Shown here: piece by piece, positions 12,306 through 17,446 of the stretch
Position numbering within the stretch: position 1 is the stretch's first letter
Layout of the letters: each line of letters opens with the position of its first letter
Source: Candidatus Heimdallarchaeota archaeon
GTDB lineage: Archaea > Asgardarchaeota > Heimdallarchaeia > Heimdallarchaeales > Heimdallarchaeaceae
Direction of reading: 5' to 3'
DNA: 32,000 nucleotides
Assembly (NCBI GenBank): GCA_030668875.1
Contig: DAOVER010000016.1
Span: forward strand, 30,001-62,000
Translations under genes and position numbers: made by a program
Notes under the pieces: model-generated
What the model was told of the DNA's origin: nothing
What the model saw: only the letters and a program-made list of their open reading frames with translations
The model's database searches: none

Positions 12306-13607
12306 ATGAGAATACATAAAAAAAATCTTTTTGCTTCTGGAGTATTGGTTTTTCTTTTTCTTTTAGTTATCTCACCAATGTTCTGTACAGCAGAAGCTTA
12401 CAGTGTTCGATGGGAAATAGAACTGGAGACAAATTCACCCCGTGGCTTCTCCGTTGATATTGATGATAATCTTCATTTCTCTTATTGGAATTCTGACATA
12501 AGTAACAACTACTTCTCTAAAATTTCAAAGGAAGGATTAGAACTTTTTGATAAAGCTCTTAATCCACAACCTAGCTTCAACACATATCTAATTGATGATT
12601 TTGGTAAATACTTTTTTGTATCTATCGAAGAAATGATAAATACTTGGAGTGGATATTTGGGTAAGGAATTTACAATAGCACAATATTCTGATGAACTCAT
12701 CTATATTTCGACATTTAATATAAATCTTTCAAGCTACTTTGAAGGGGAATTTCTTGGAAATCTTAAATATGTTGATAGTGATTGTATCTATTTTGCTATA
12801 TTGGAATATCAAGGAGAATACGATGAATTGAACACTGAATTAGATTGCATTCAGTTAGCTAAATTTAGTACTACAGGAGAGAAACTTTGGAATAGAACAA
12901 TAGCCCTTAATCCAGATAGCACTATTTTTGGTTTTTGTAAAAACAGTTATGGAAATGTCTATGTTGAGAATGAAGGAGTTCTGTATTACCTTGATGATGA
13001 AAATGGAATGGATATTTGGCAAAATACTATTTTAATAGATGATCCAACCATCTCACTAAACTCTGTTGAGAGTAAATATTTGATGGCGTTTGAAGAAAAT
13101 ACTTTGCTGGTAGTTATTACTCTTGGTTTAAGACTATTTACGAAATTTTGTAAAGTAGATGGGACTTTTGATTGGGAGATGAAACTTGAAACAGAGAATA
13201 CTAATCGTGTTTTTACCAGCAAAAGTATTGCTGTTGAAGATGATTTTTTGGGTATCACTACTCTTGAAGAAGACTTTGTTTATGATGAAAGAGAGAAAAC
13301 AAATATATTCCATTTACATCTATTAAACTCTGCAAAAGAAGTTCTTTATGAAGAAAGAATAGAGATAATAGATGAAGTTGATGCAAGTTCAGATATATTC
13401 AGACTCATTAGAATTCTCCCTACTTCAGAAGGACATTTTTACCGTTACGATTTAACGAGAGACTTTGTGAATGATATAGTTGAAAGCACAATCAAGTATT
13501 GTATACCAAAAACTAATTTTATCACAGGTTATACATTAATAATCTCCATTTCAAGTATTAGTATACTCGTTTTATTAGTTGTTTATAGGCGGAAAACATC
13601 TAAATAA
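12306..13607 (+). CDS. Secreted, C-terminally anchored surface protein (paralog of 8638-9900)
   Basis: Signal peptide; shared blocks INLSSYFEG, YVDSDC, QLAKF.T.GE.LWNRTIALNPD, YCIP; C-terminal TM plus RRKTSK. Confidence 0.7.
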   Translation: MRIHKKNLFASGVLVFLFLLVISPMFCTAEAYSVRWEIELETNSPRGFSVDIDDNLHFSYWNSDISNNYFSKISKEGLELFDKALNPQPSFNTYLIDDFGKYFFVSIEEMINTWSGYLGKEFTIAQYSDELIYISTFNINLSSYFEGEFLGNLKYVDSDCIYFAILEYQGEYDELNTELDCIQLAKFSTTGEKLWNRTIALNPDSTIFGFCKNSYGNVYVENEGVLYYLDDENGMDIWQNTILIDDPTISLNSVESKYLMAFEENTLLVVITLGLRLFTKFCKVDGTFDWEMKLETENTNRVFTSKSIAVEDDFLGITTLEEDFVYDEREKTNIFHLHLLNSAKEVLYEERIEIIDEVDASSDIFRLIRILPTSEGHFYRYDLTRDFVNDIVESTIKYCIPKTNFITGYTLIISISSISILVLLVVYRRKTSK

Positions 13608-15018
13608 CTCCTCTTCTCTTCTTTTCTTTTACTTTATTATTCATATAACTAATCCACTGAATTTCATCCCCCAGTAAATCAGAGATAATTTTTGAAGATT
13701 TGACTCCTTTAAAGAGAGCTTGTACTTTAACTAGCAACCATTCAAAGGATCCTTTCATCTTAAATTGTATAAACAGTCTTATCGCTAACTCATAGAACAA
13801 TAATATGTAAGCTATTGCTAGAAACATCCACAACTCTTGCCCTCTACCTATTATTCCTTCTTCCATGAAATTATACCCTGGTAGTTTCTGTAAAATGAGC
13901 GACAGAATCCATCGAGGAAGTAGCTCTAATATATGCAAAGAATAGATAGTCAAAGAAAGAATTGACCATCTTCTAAAGAATTTAACGATTCTTCTATTTG
14001 CAAATGTTTTACCTTTCCCTCTGTATTCTATTAAAGCTAGAAGAGTCATAAGTAAGCAAACCTGCCCTCCTAATCTAAGTAGGTAAGTGGTTATTGCAGG
14101 AGGTTGTTCAAGAAAAGTGAAAGGCAATCCTAAAACAATTAGGATTAAACCTGCAATGATCATTAAAACACCTACAAGACTTAGCCACAACAGTATTTTT
14201 TTCGGAGGTATTGGATCTGCAAGAAGCATACCGATAAGCGCTCCAATGAATGAAGAAGCTAGATAGGGGAAGAGAGGTTGTTTGGGACCATTAACTATTG
14301 TTAAGAACCAAGTTCTAGCAGATCTATTGTGATAAACGAATTCTATGTCAGGCCAACCAAATTCTCCTGAAGGATATAACCAAGTAGAGTTTGAAATCCA
14401 GTTGGAAATAAATGGAGTAAGAACTATAACAAATAGAATGAGACAAGCAAAAATAGCAATGTTTCTTATAACCTTCTCATAGCCTTTATTACGCATCAAA
14501 ATATACATGAGTAATCCATTAATTACTAAACAAATACCTATTATCTGCAAGGTTTGGAACCAAAGAACTTCAACTTTGAAGTAAGCGAAATTAGTCCATT
14601 CTAATGTTCTTATTGAATATCCAATATCGCCATAGTATCCCAAGATTCCCTCTATGAAGTAAGCTAATATTATAAGAACTACTCCTGTTGTAATTTGCTT
14701 TAGAAGTGATTTTAAAGGACTAATGTCAGCTTTTGTTTTTCTTATAAAAGTGTAAGAATTCACCACTGAAGAGATAAACAAGAAGAACCCATACCAAGAT
14801 CCGAGGTAAGCAAATAATCCCATGATAATCAACAAAATTATAGGAAATTTTAGTATCTCTTCTTGGTTTGCCATAAATCCTTCAACATCGTACATCTTGA
14901 AGAGAATATGAAAAAGAGTCATCCCGAAGATTGCTACTCCTCTAAGAAAATCTAGAGTAACTAATCTTTTAGGTATTTTTGGTAATTCTTCTGATGAAGA
15001 AGGGGATTGAAGGTCCAA
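13600..15018 (-). CDS. Multi-pass membrane protein, HGSNAT/DUF1624/acyltransferase-3-like
   Basis: RLVTLDFLRGVAIFGM N-terminal motif, LQIIG, PLFPYL, SLTIYSLH, GSFEWLL; about 10 TM helices. Confidence 0.72.
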   Translation of the reverse strand: MDLQSPSSSEELPKIPKRLVTLDFLRGVAIFGMTLFHILFKMYDVEGFMANQEEILKFPIILLIIMGLFAYLGSWYGFFLFISSVVNSYTFIRKTKADISPLKSLLKQITTGVVLIILAYFIEGILGYYGDIGYSIRTLEWTNFAYFKVEVLWFQTLQIIGICLVINGLLMYILMRNKGYEKVIRNIAIFACLILFVIVLTPFISNWISNSTWLYPSGEFGWPDIEFVYHNRSARTWFLTIVNGPKQPLFPYLASSFIGALIGMLLADPIPPKKILLWLSLVGVLMIIAGLILIVLGLPFTFLEQPPAITTYLLRLGGQVCLLMTLLALIEYRGKGKTFANRRIVKFFRRWSILSLTIYSLHILELLPRWILSLILQKLPGYNFMEEGIIGRGQELWMFLAIAYILLFYELAIRLFIQFKMKGSFEWLLVKVQALFKGVKSSKIISDLLGDEIQWISYMNNKVKEKKRRGVI

Positions 15019-15447: not shown

Positions 15448-16548
15448 ATGCAAATTAGAAATAAATATAGAATTTCTCTGCTCATTGTTCTTATACTGAG
15501 TATGAGTGTGATAACAGCGATAACATCGCCTGTTATGGGAGTTACCATCGTGAAGATGGGAGATAATAATGCTATTGATAAAAGCATATTAGTAATTAGA
15601 GAAGATGTGCCAAATCCTTCAATCATGGAATATAATTCATTGGAATTTTCCTTGAGAATTAGCCATTGTTTTGGTCCTGTAATATGGATAGGGCATGGGA
15701 ATGATCAGGGAATTACAACAGAAAATACCCAGATGTCTTGGGTTGAATTCGCTTCAAACATTGAAAAAACTCCTGCTAAAGATATAGTACTGTCTTGTGA
15801 TTCTAAGAATCTAGTAAAACAAACAGATTTAGAAGAAATAGATGTGTTTACATTTGAAGGATCAATTGATGCAGTAATTGGAGGATTGTTTACATCATAT
15901 ATAATAACTAGATCTCAAACTATTATCGACAAACTGCTTGTAAGAGCAATTGATATTGTATCAGGAATAGCTCAAAAAGAAGAGCTCGCAGTGGTAATTG
16001 GTGATGGAGGTGGAGGAGGAACTACAACATCTACAGTTAATTACATTGTACGTAATCCTTTCGGTCCAGAAGGCGGATGGGGAATAGTAGAAACTATATG
16101 GAACTGCGGTAATCTGGCAATGGTTTTAATAGGCGCTTTACTTACCTTTTCATCATGCTGGATTGTGGTAAAAGTGAAATCAGTAATCAGCGCGGCAAGT
16201 GTAAATTTCTTTACTGCTGCGGCTAACTTCTTTGCTGTGCTATTTAATCATATGAGTAATGTTGCAATGATAGGTGGTGCGTTACTTGCCTTTTTACCTG
16301 AAATAGTTATTTTTATCTGTACTAAACTGATCCCTGCAATAGCTTGGTTTCTTCAAGCTGCAGCAATTGCAGATGTGACTGCTCAAGCTGGGGTAATAGC
16401 AACAACAGCTGGAACTGCTACTGCCCTTAAAGTATTGCAAATTATTTCAATAATTGCAACAGTTGTATGGTGGATAATAGGATCTATTTCGGATCTTACT
16501 GATAAAGATGATATCTGCAATATGCCAGCTTGGATGTTTGGTGGATGA
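15448..16548 (+). CDS. Secreted protein: putative clan-CD (caspase/gingipain/CHAT-like) protease domain + Gly linker + hydrophobic multi-helix C-terminal domain (candidate autoprocessing toxin)
   Basis: SD gaggt upstream; signal peptide; VIWIG-H83-G and DIVLS-C117-DS; GDGGGGGTTTST linker from residue 185; Ala/Ile-rich hydrophobic tail with 4 Cys. The CDS is secure; the function is inference. Confidence 0.6.
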   Translation: MQIRNKYRISLLIVLILSMSVITAITSPVMGVTIVKMGDNNAIDKSILVIREDVPNPSIMEYNSLEFSLRISHCFGPVIWIGHGNDQGITTENTQMSWVEFASNIEKTPAKDIVLSCDSKNLVKQTDLEEIDVFTFEGSIDAVIGGLFTSYIITRSQTIIDKLLVRAIDIVSGIAQKEELAVVIGDGGGGGTTTSTVNYIVRNPFGPEGGWGIVETIWNCGNLAMVLIGALLTFSSCWIVVKVKSVISAASVNFFTAAANFFAVLFNHMSNVAMIGGALLAFLPEIVIFICTKLIPAIAWFLQAAAIADVTAQAGVIATTAGTATALKVLQIISIIATVVWWIIGSISDLTDKDDICNMPAWMFGG

Positions 16549-16600
16549 AATTAAACAATTCAAAAACATTAAAAGAATTGAATATGGAGATGGATTTGAA

Positions 16601-17446
16601 ATGAAAAGATCTAATTCATCTTCAAAGTTTTTTTCTCAAGATAAAGAAGATCTACAAATTTGGGGTTTCTCACGAAAAAAATCAATAAAAATATTAATGC
16701 TGATAACACTCTTTCTGTTCATCTTAGTAACTCTTTTCCTATTATGGGGATTAGCAATTACTTCGAGGTATAGGGTATATTGGTATGATATTTTTAATCT
16801 TAAAAGCTTCTTAATGGTTATTATTGCAGGGGGATGGATGAGTTTCGCTCCAAGTGCTATAGCGTTTTTATTGAAACCAAAGAAACGAGAAAGACGTTTT
16901 CTTTTAGGTATGAATTGGCTCTTAGCTATTATTGGAACAATTATTACAACAATAGCCTATGTTTTATTAATCATTTTTGTTTGGATTCCTTCCTTATCCG
17001 TTTCTGATCAATTGATACCATCCTTAAAATATGGTGTACCAATTATCTTACCAGTAATAGTATGGCCTTCTGTTTTTATCCTTTGGTTCTCCTATATTCT
17101 CTTAACGACATACACTAATATAGTAATTAATCAGAATATAAAGGAAATATTAGTTTACGGGCGCACAGCAAAAGGAGATAGATTCAGTTATACCTTTCCT
17201 CTTTCACCGGAATATCAGTTAGCAATTATGAAATATGATTTAAAAAACTCCCCTGAAAAATTCCAACGGTGGGGAATATTTTTAGAAACTGAAACGCAGT
17301 TAGTAAGACTCTACTCAGGATACGAAAAAGGAGTTAAACAATTTCTTGAAGAACTAGTAGCAATAACAAATTGGATAACAGTTACAAAGACAGATGAAGA
17401 ACCACCAAATATATTAGAAATTTGTACTCCTAAAGGTTCCGTATAG
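16601..17446 (+). CDS. Membrane protein (about 4 TM) with soluble beta-rich C-terminal domain; candidate immunity protein
   Basis: ATG 16601 preferred over 16508 (avoids overlap, ggag upstream); hydrophobic helices then a PH-like strand pattern ending in a helix (GVKQFLEELVAIT). Confidence 0.6.
   Translation: MKRSNSSSKFFSQDKEDLQIWGFSRKKSIKILMLITLFLFILVTLFLLWGLAITSRYRVYWYDIFNLKSFLMVIIAGGWMSFAPSAIAFLLKPKKRERRFLLGMNWLLAIIGTIITTIAYVLLIIFVWIPSLSVSDQLIPSLKYGVPIILPVIVWPSVFILWFSYILLTTYTNIVINQNIKEILVYGRTAKGDRFSYTFPLSPEYQLAIMKYDLKNSPEKFQRWGIFLETETQLVRLYSGYEKGVKQFLEELVAITNWITVTKTDEEPPNILEICTPKGSV

Follow-up and report, generated by a model that had tools for sequence, protein, structure and literature searches.

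Relationship to described clan CD systems

Clan CD peptidases, which include caspases, legumain, separase, and the glycosylphosphatidylinositol (GPI) transamidase, are central in eukaryotic cell biology. This study examined a 32,000-nt stretch of DNA (hereafter the window) from a Candidatus Heimdallarchaeota archaeon, contig DAOVER010000016.1, positions 30,001 to 62,000, in which the gene at 15448-16548 on the + strand encodes a 366-aa protein. Structurally, this protein is very probably an outward-facing clan CD peptidase that is attached to a conserved membrane module. The gene and the membrane protein gene at 16601-17446 would together make up an accessory cassette of two genes, one that diversifies rapidly across the Asgard archaea. 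We tentatively read this cassette as one of conflict or self/non-self recognition, in which the peptidase may process the protein and the membrane module may work with a cognate partner. The finding places a large clan CD family in the closest prokaryotic relatives of eukaryotes and points to an unusual layout, namely a protease that probably lies outside the cell, a fused multi-helix membrane module, and a genetically coupled membrane protein.

The original prediction did not recognize this architecture as described in archaea. There is, however, a bacterial precedent: Zhang et al. 2012 (PMC3482391) described Sec-dependent polymorphic toxins with caspase-like releasing peptidases. Like those toxins, the Asgard proteins start with a signal peptide, and their caspase-like peptidase immediately precedes a C-terminal module that varies; a variable gene lies downstream, and there are arrays with orphan modules. 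Unlike them, the family is archaeal, its C-terminal modules are all hydrophobic helices of one architecture, the partner gene was not found in some genomes, and the module probably stays in the membrane.

CHAT proteases, which belong to clan CD, are among the closest known systems; one example is SAVED-CHAT of Haliangium ochraceum (PDB 8tl0; dyad H375/C422). CHAT is a cytoplasmic signalling protease, whereas the domain described here is probably extracytoplasmic, is membrane-tethered, lacks a sensor domain, and does not match PF12770. Legumain and GPI8, of family C13, were top Foldseek matches in the PDB and Swiss-Prot and share a short His-Cys spacing (34 residues here). The layout of GPI8, with a signal peptide, a lumenal clan CD domain, and a C-terminal membrane anchor, is also similar. 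However, the E-values of these matches were only 4e-3 to 2e-2 with no C13 sequence signal, the Asgard tail has several helices and a motif in place of one transmembrane (TM) helix, and partner subunits of the GPI transamidase were not identified.

Membrane-depolarising toxins, such as the glycine-zipper type, come with polytopic immunity proteins. The Asgard cassette resembles them in its Ala/Gly-rich hydrophobic helical module and its polytopic partner, which sometimes occurs in repeated copies; it differs in that the tail had no significant sequence or fold match and in that no secretion system is present. Proteolytic release of a membrane-acting part from a precursor is the concept that links the halocin C8 precursor and bacterial gasdermin-protease pairs to the scheme proposed for this protein. 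The gasdermin-activating proteases Gilli_2517 and Roc-COR-CHAT were among the weak structural matches of the N-terminal domain. Unlike gasdermins, however, the tail is modelled as all-helical and TM-like, and the protease is fused to it and probably lies outside the cell. Similarity to halocin C8 was not detected in the Pfam scans.

Conserved dyad and fold of the N-terminal domain

The N-terminal domain had been predicted to adopt a caspase-haemoglobinase type fold with His83 and Cys117 as its dyad. In an alignment of 175 family sequences, H83 was retained in 169/172, C117 in 165/166, and G84 in 155/171, and conservation reached at least 90% at each of H83, G84, G88, C117, S119, and D141. C117 was the sole invariant column in alignment A1. 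Basic residues in the domain were not near-invariant, and position 73, which is mostly Arg in the family, is His in this protein.

We modelled the protein by using AlphaFold2. The single-sequence model had a predicted local distance difference test score (pLDDT) of 37 and was replaced by a model built on a 121-sequence alignment, which reached a pLDDT of 79 overall and >95 for residues 30-170. The order of elements assigned by DSSP was beta1, alpha1, beta2, alpha2, beta3 (78-81), H83, a hairpin (88-90/95-97), alpha3 (98-106), beta4 (112-115), and C117. In the caspase-haemoglobinase fold, the two dyad residues are found where beta3 and beta4 end on their C-terminal side, and a small beta-section separates beta3 from alpha3; the clan CD core is an alpha/beta/alpha arrangement of parallel strands with helices alpha1-alpha3 (PMC4357240). 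The family-conserved motifs VIWIGHG and DIVLSC provide the His-Gly and the small-residue-Cys after hydrophobic stretches, and the alpha/beta/alpha core is indicated by the confident model and by its best matches in the PDB, AFDB, Swiss-Prot, and the ESM-Atlas, which were clan CD structures.

The results of the Foldseek searches revealed that legumain, PIGK (GPI transamidase), the MARTX cysteine protease domain, and caspase-7 were at or near the top in the PDB, with weak E-values of 4e-3 to 4e-2. The catalytic H375 and C422 of SAVED-CHAT fell within the structurally aligned range. Family members came first among the AFDB clusters, followed by gingipain, many CHAT, C14, and hemoglobinase entries. 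The top structural match in Swiss-Prot was yeast GPI8, with two gasdermin-activating proteases also among the matches, and 8/10 rows from the ESM-Atlas were clan CD proteins. The alignment-based model, these matches, and the near-invariant His-Gly and Ser-Cys after consecutive strands bear out the predicted fold type.

A sequence-level link to a named family was not found. The gingipain family C25 (PF01364) matched one of 121 members (E 0.0083), which falls short of membership. CHAT (PF12770) did not match this protein at E<=1 and was absent from the top 25 Pfam families for the 121 members. For C13 (legumain/GPI8), a Pfam sequence signal was lacking, and the structural matches were top-ranked yet weak. 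We did not file the N-terminal domain under CHAT, C25, or C13, and we conclude that it probably constitutes a new compact family of clan CD type.

Gene layout

The gene, its parts, and its downstream partner are as follows (all on the + strand).

15448..16548, +, whole gene, 366 aa, belonging to an unnamed Asgard family
15448..15537, +, residues 1-30, helix serving as signal peptide or signal anchor, in which a hydrophobic stretch comes after the basic MQIRNKYR
15538..16002, +, clan CD-like alpha/beta domain, residues 31-185, probably extracytoplasmic
15694..15696, +, codon of His83, putative catalytic His in VIWIG-H-G, directly after strand 78-81
15796..15798, +, codon of Cys117, putative nucleophile in DIVLS-C-DS, two residues past strand 112-115
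15868..15870, +, codon of Asp141, near-invariant acidic residue past the fifth strand (151/162 Asp)
16000..16044, +, Gly/Thr-rich stalk, residues 185-199, GDGGGGGTTTSTVNY, pLDDT <50
16045..16488, +, hydrophobic helical membrane module, residues 200-347, with three strong and two weaker helices
16489..16545, +, conserved C-terminal motif S-D-x-x-D-x-D-D-x-x-N-M-P-x-W-x-F-G-G, residues 348-366
16601..17446, +, type A partner, 281-aa polytopic membrane protein, start set by homology (alignment A2)

All the features that the original prediction had listed were found in place: the basic-hydrophobic N-terminus, VIWIG-H83-G, DIVLS-C117-DS, VFTFEGSIDA (residues 133-142), the linker GDGGGGGTTTST, which begins at 16000 (residue 185), and the tail with Cys and Trp (residues 200-366; four Cys, at 220, 237, 291, and 357, and seven Trp). 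The N-terminal helix has a Kyte-Doolittle mean of 2.38 and appears as a helix at residues 2-26 in the model. Asp141 may be an S1-pocket residue. The G+C content of the window is approximately 31%.

Compared with the orthologue at locus L003, the N-terminal domain showed a dN/dS of 0.16 and the tail 0.20. The type A partner had a dN/dS of 0.23. Because homologues at 83-89% identity exist, the dN/dS values of the N-terminal domain and the tail are low, and H83 and C117 are kept family-wide, the sequence comparison identifies the open reading frame (ORF) 15448-16548 as a real gene rather than a chance ORF.

Hydrophobic tail and topology

The tail comprises about 165-167 residues (200-366). Averaged over 19 residues, the Kyte-Doolittle values of its three strong hydrophobic segments (at approximately 221-244, 271-297, and 322-348) are 1.8-2.3, and two weaker Ala-rich segments lie between them. 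The tail was modelled as helices only (213-265, 271-297, 300-319, and 324-351), which is not the beta-rich fold of a gasdermin; the C-terminus, at a pLDDT of 45-74, was not confidently placed. In the language-model atlas, the tail scored 0.80, which is noise level, and significant sequence or fold matches were not found. Glycine-zipper Pfam models matched few family tails (2/121 members, best E 2.9e-6).

In eight FGG-type tails (alignment A3), the polar residues within the helices and the whole terminal motif were invariant. The shorter pattern D-x-x-D-x-[DN] occurred within the last 45 residues of 74/133 distinct members, compared with 1.5 expected from shuffling, and in 33 members it was followed by exactly four residues of the form x-[IVW]-[VIA]-G. 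The C-terminal residue was Gly in 43/133 distinct members; a run of at least three Gly was present at the stalk position, likewise in 43/133. Because of the purifying selection, the invariant polar residues, and the conserved terminal motif, the tail is probably more than a passive anchor.

The protease domain is probably extracytoplasmic, since the N-terminus fits a signal or anchor helix with its end inside the cell, a Gly/Thr stalk follows the domain, and longer relatives bear PKD and Big_7 domains. Lys 242/244, 293, and 328 would fit a four-helix topology with the C-terminus outside the cell. The three strong segments are hydrophobic enough that they should integrate into the producer membrane during Sec export, which counts against a freely released peptide. 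The halocin C8-like release of the tail that had been proposed is therefore disfavoured, and the tail is most likely membrane-resident rather than released as a soluble bacteriocin.

Two relatives, P0087 (511 aa) and P0113 (643 aa), carried a poly-Gly run and a Cys-initiated HINT-like last domain beyond the tail. The HINT matches (PT-HINT, E 4.4e-4; Hom_end_hint, 5e-4; Intein_splicing, 3e-3) were all below the Pfam cut-offs. Hog-like N-terminal cleavage by HINT would leave a C-terminal Gly, the same ending as that of the 43/133 HINT-less members.

Partner genes and cassette turnover

A co-oriented membrane gene, the type A partner at 16601-17446, follows the family gene. The longest ORF of the partner would begin at an ATG at 16508, with 41 nt inside the end of the family gene; because all homologues start at the MK... 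of 16601 (alignment A2), the 16508-16600 part of this ORF is probably untranslated. Type A genes lay beside FGG-type tails at 7/7 loci in three genera; among these loci were one with the genes convergent, one with a broken family gene, and one with a tail remnant of 70 residues. A different family of approximately 280 residues, type B, lay beside IVG-type tails at 12/12 loci. Crosses between tail type and partner type were not found among these 7 + 12 loci. Partners were intact beside broken or truncated family genes, and in one genome, approximately nine copies of the family gene were accompanied by ten of type B, tandem partner copies included. Beside a conserved CitMHS transporter gene, congeners had the whole cassette, the tail and partner, or nothing.

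Neither partner type had a Pfam match. The language-model atlas returned a weak PH-domain lead for type A (0.83) and ABC-2 permease look-alikes for type B (0.87-0.92), the latter as a lead only. A predicted complex of the tail with the type A partner scored 0.01; the prediction was run without controls and was not used as evidence either way.

A tail-only ORF was observed at locus L007 (positions 1504-1998 of that locus; G004:C107:197330-197824). It is 78% identical to residues 203-366, lies directly behind an unrelated gene, has its first ATG within the first helix, and is followed by an intact type A partner. Its dN/dS of 0.19-0.40 is compatible with recent deletion and with retained function alike, and the copy is either a recent N-terminal domain deletion or a stand-alone tail gene.

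An array at L054/L055 (G035:C4:890001-916000) comprised one full-length family gene, four N-terminal domain fragments, and three intact type A genes, together with a 5'-truncated FGG-type copy with an internal TAA and a 70-aa tail remnant. In distant, higher-GC Asgard archaea (L057, G125:C2:5001-19000; L058, G108:C16:93001-104000), family genes were followed by genes with four to five TM helices, of 214-313 aa, which matched neither type A nor type B; one of these overlapped the end of the family gene by 17 nt.

Family size and distribution

A word-indexed search identified three orthologues at 83-89% identity, one of which is labelled Candidatus Heimdallarchaeaceae, and a 35%-identical relative whose match was limited to the N-terminal half. 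When 1.84 billion cluster representatives (50% identity clusters) were searched exhaustively with phmmer, at least 167 proteins matched at E<=1e-3; most of them had 300-400 residues and were matched via the N-terminal domain. The family was present in 27/60 whole genomes of relatives and, phylum-wide, in 64/250 Asgard genomes with 0-12 copies each; 186/250 had no match. The family is thus large and patchy, without a Pfam model or a name. Its description was not found in the searchable literature; the review of archaeal conflict systems by Makarova et al. 2019 lies outside that scope, and a prior description there is possible.

The source genome contains a second family copy on another contig. 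This paralogue (L005, G000:C65:1-3281) has 381 aa, an IVG-type tail, and a type B partner. The pair adjoins a divergent 171-aa partial ORF at the contig end, which appears transposase-like by eye.

Divergence of the tail

The first analysis of this DNA had asked whether the protease is constant and the tail polymorphic among homologues. By phmmer, the query N-terminal domain detected 161 family N-terminal domains, whereas the query tail detected only nine tails; the protease domain is thus far better conserved than the tail. Proteins with the closest N-terminal domains had undetectable tails, and vice versa. The 142 tails fell into 39 sequence classes, with 61/142, the query tail included, linked in one class. 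Rapid divergence of the tail was therefore evident from these sequences.

The shared architecture and the common C-terminal acidic motif count against unrelated cassettes, and a tree test did not support swapping. In the N-terminal domain tree, FGG-tail proteins occupied two places, and forcing them into a single clade cost 13.5 log-likelihood units. The approximately unbiased (AU) test did not reject the single clade (p-AU 0.217), and because of this result we dropped the claim of recombination.

Interpretation of the cassette

The mechanism that we tentatively favour is that of a diversifying conflict or recognition cassette. The N-terminal signal or anchor helix would send the compact peptidase domain, with its His83/Cys117 dyad, to the outer face of the membrane. 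The Gly/Thr stalk would link it to a module in which approximately 165 residues form four or five hydrophobic helices and which ends, probably extracellularly, in the acidic D-x-x-D-x-D motif. The peptidase may mature the protein by cutting in cis or in trans, at the stalk or at the C-terminal motif; the hydrophobic module would then act in a membrane, and the partner may be a cognate protector or receptor. If the cassette does work in conflict or recognition, it would count among the few candidates for membrane-level antagonism in Asgard archaea, and the bacterial pairing of caspase-like releasing peptidase and toxin would have an archaeal version here.

Several findings weigh against this mechanism. 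At the level of the enzyme, a profile search of PDB sequences yielded zero matches at E<=10, the 366-aa protein (P0001) had no Pfam match at E<=1, and hhalign against eight C25 domains from Asgard archaea covered no more than 15 columns, those around the His motif (probability 0.9%, not significant); that the side chains of His83 and Cys117 lie side by side, about 4 A apart as required for clan CD, is a prediction. At the level of the tail, all members have the same hydrophobic architecture, which sets them apart from true polymorphic toxins, and tail swapping was not supported by the AU test. At the level of the locus, four genomes that are 81-88% complete (G007, G008, G011, and G022) carried the family gene with a type B partner found nowhere, and L001 showed a solitary family gene between unrelated genes. 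To our knowledge, there is also no archaeal delivery route for a membrane-embedded module.

Part of this evidence is what would be expected of a resident surface protease, a reading that we consider plausible though doubtful. The tail would be the multi-helix anchor of a housekeeping ectopeptidase for maturation or turnover of envelope proteins, and the downstream membrane protein would be a substrate, a regulator, or a mere neighbour, with no toxin or immunity involved. The near-invariant catalytic residues, a tail hydrophobic enough for a stable anchor, its single architecture throughout, the solitary genes and missing partners, and the unsupported swapping are all consistent with such an enzyme, and GPI8 and other clan CD enzymes are membrane-tethered likewise. 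However, a plain anchor needs neither approximately 165 residues nor conserved polar residues and a terminal motif. The strict co-variation of tail and partner, the arrays, orphan partners, and pseudogenes, and the presence or absence among congeners are unusual for a housekeeping gene, as is the lack of a match in 186/250 Asgard genomes.

The terminal motif also raises the question of a self-acting transpeptidase, which we regard as improbable. A legumain/GPI8-like domain would read its own C-terminal signal (Asx, then x-hydrophobic-hydrophobic-Gly), remove the last residues, and couple the C-terminal end thus created to a lipid, to a component of the envelope, or to a further subunit. The exact four-residue spacing after D-x-x-D-x-[DN] in 33 members fits such a signal, legumain, asparaginyl endopeptidase ligases, and GPI8 were among the best structural matches, the positive-inside rule would put the C-terminus on the protease side, and the HINT-bearing variants would likewise yield a C-terminal Gly. 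Against these points, the best structural match was CHAT and not C13, C13 gave no sequence signal, the domain has no near-invariant basic residue for an Asp/Asn S1 pocket (position 73 being mostly Arg, and His here), and the C-terminus is modelled at low pLDDT. The broader proposal that the family is a self-contained Asgard transpeptidase joining its own C-terminus to a lipid or envelope acceptor, with a Hog-like HINT making the same Gly end in some relatives, appears very unlikely. If true, the closest archaeal relatives of eukaryotes would have a prokaryotic counterpart of GPI-transamidase or peptide-ligase chemistry, with a bearing on how GPI-type anchoring originated. Whether it encodes a conflict or recognition cassette or a transpeptidase, the locus offers a defined target for tests: the residues H83 and C117, the stalk, the terminal motif, and the matching partner.

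It is similarly hard to credit the diffusible self-processing bacteriocin of the original prediction, in which a cut in the stalk frees a soluble pore-former; the downstream gene would then confer immunity. The bacterial toxins with releasing peptidases, the few glycine-zipper matches, and the same co-variation, arrays, and patchiness that suggest a conflict or recognition cassette are compatible with it. Nevertheless, segments with means of 1.8-2.3 should be stop-transfer anchors in Sec export, the tail would still be in the producer membrane after a stalk cut, and no dedicated exporter adjoins the family gene. The view that the protein is no peptidase, and that its His, Cys, and Asp bind a metal or serve another kind of catalysis on a generic flavodoxin/Rossmann-like fold, is highly improbable, since clan CD proteins gave the best match, and most of the named matches, across six structure-library searches and a His-Gly and small-residue-Cys past consecutive strands is the clan CD signature (PMC4357240).

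Neighboring genes

Synteny was compared to look for replacement of the cassette at one locus, and the upstream gene of the window was not homologous to the gene that precedes L010. Upstream of the cassette, 12306-13607 (+) encodes a secreted protein of 433 aa, whose PQQ/beta-propeller match is weak and which has a TM anchor at its C-terminus, and 13600-15018 (-) encodes a 472-aa polytopic membrane protein without a Pfam family. The 472-aa protein also lies beside the cassette in L003 (87% identity) and is located elsewhere in G004.
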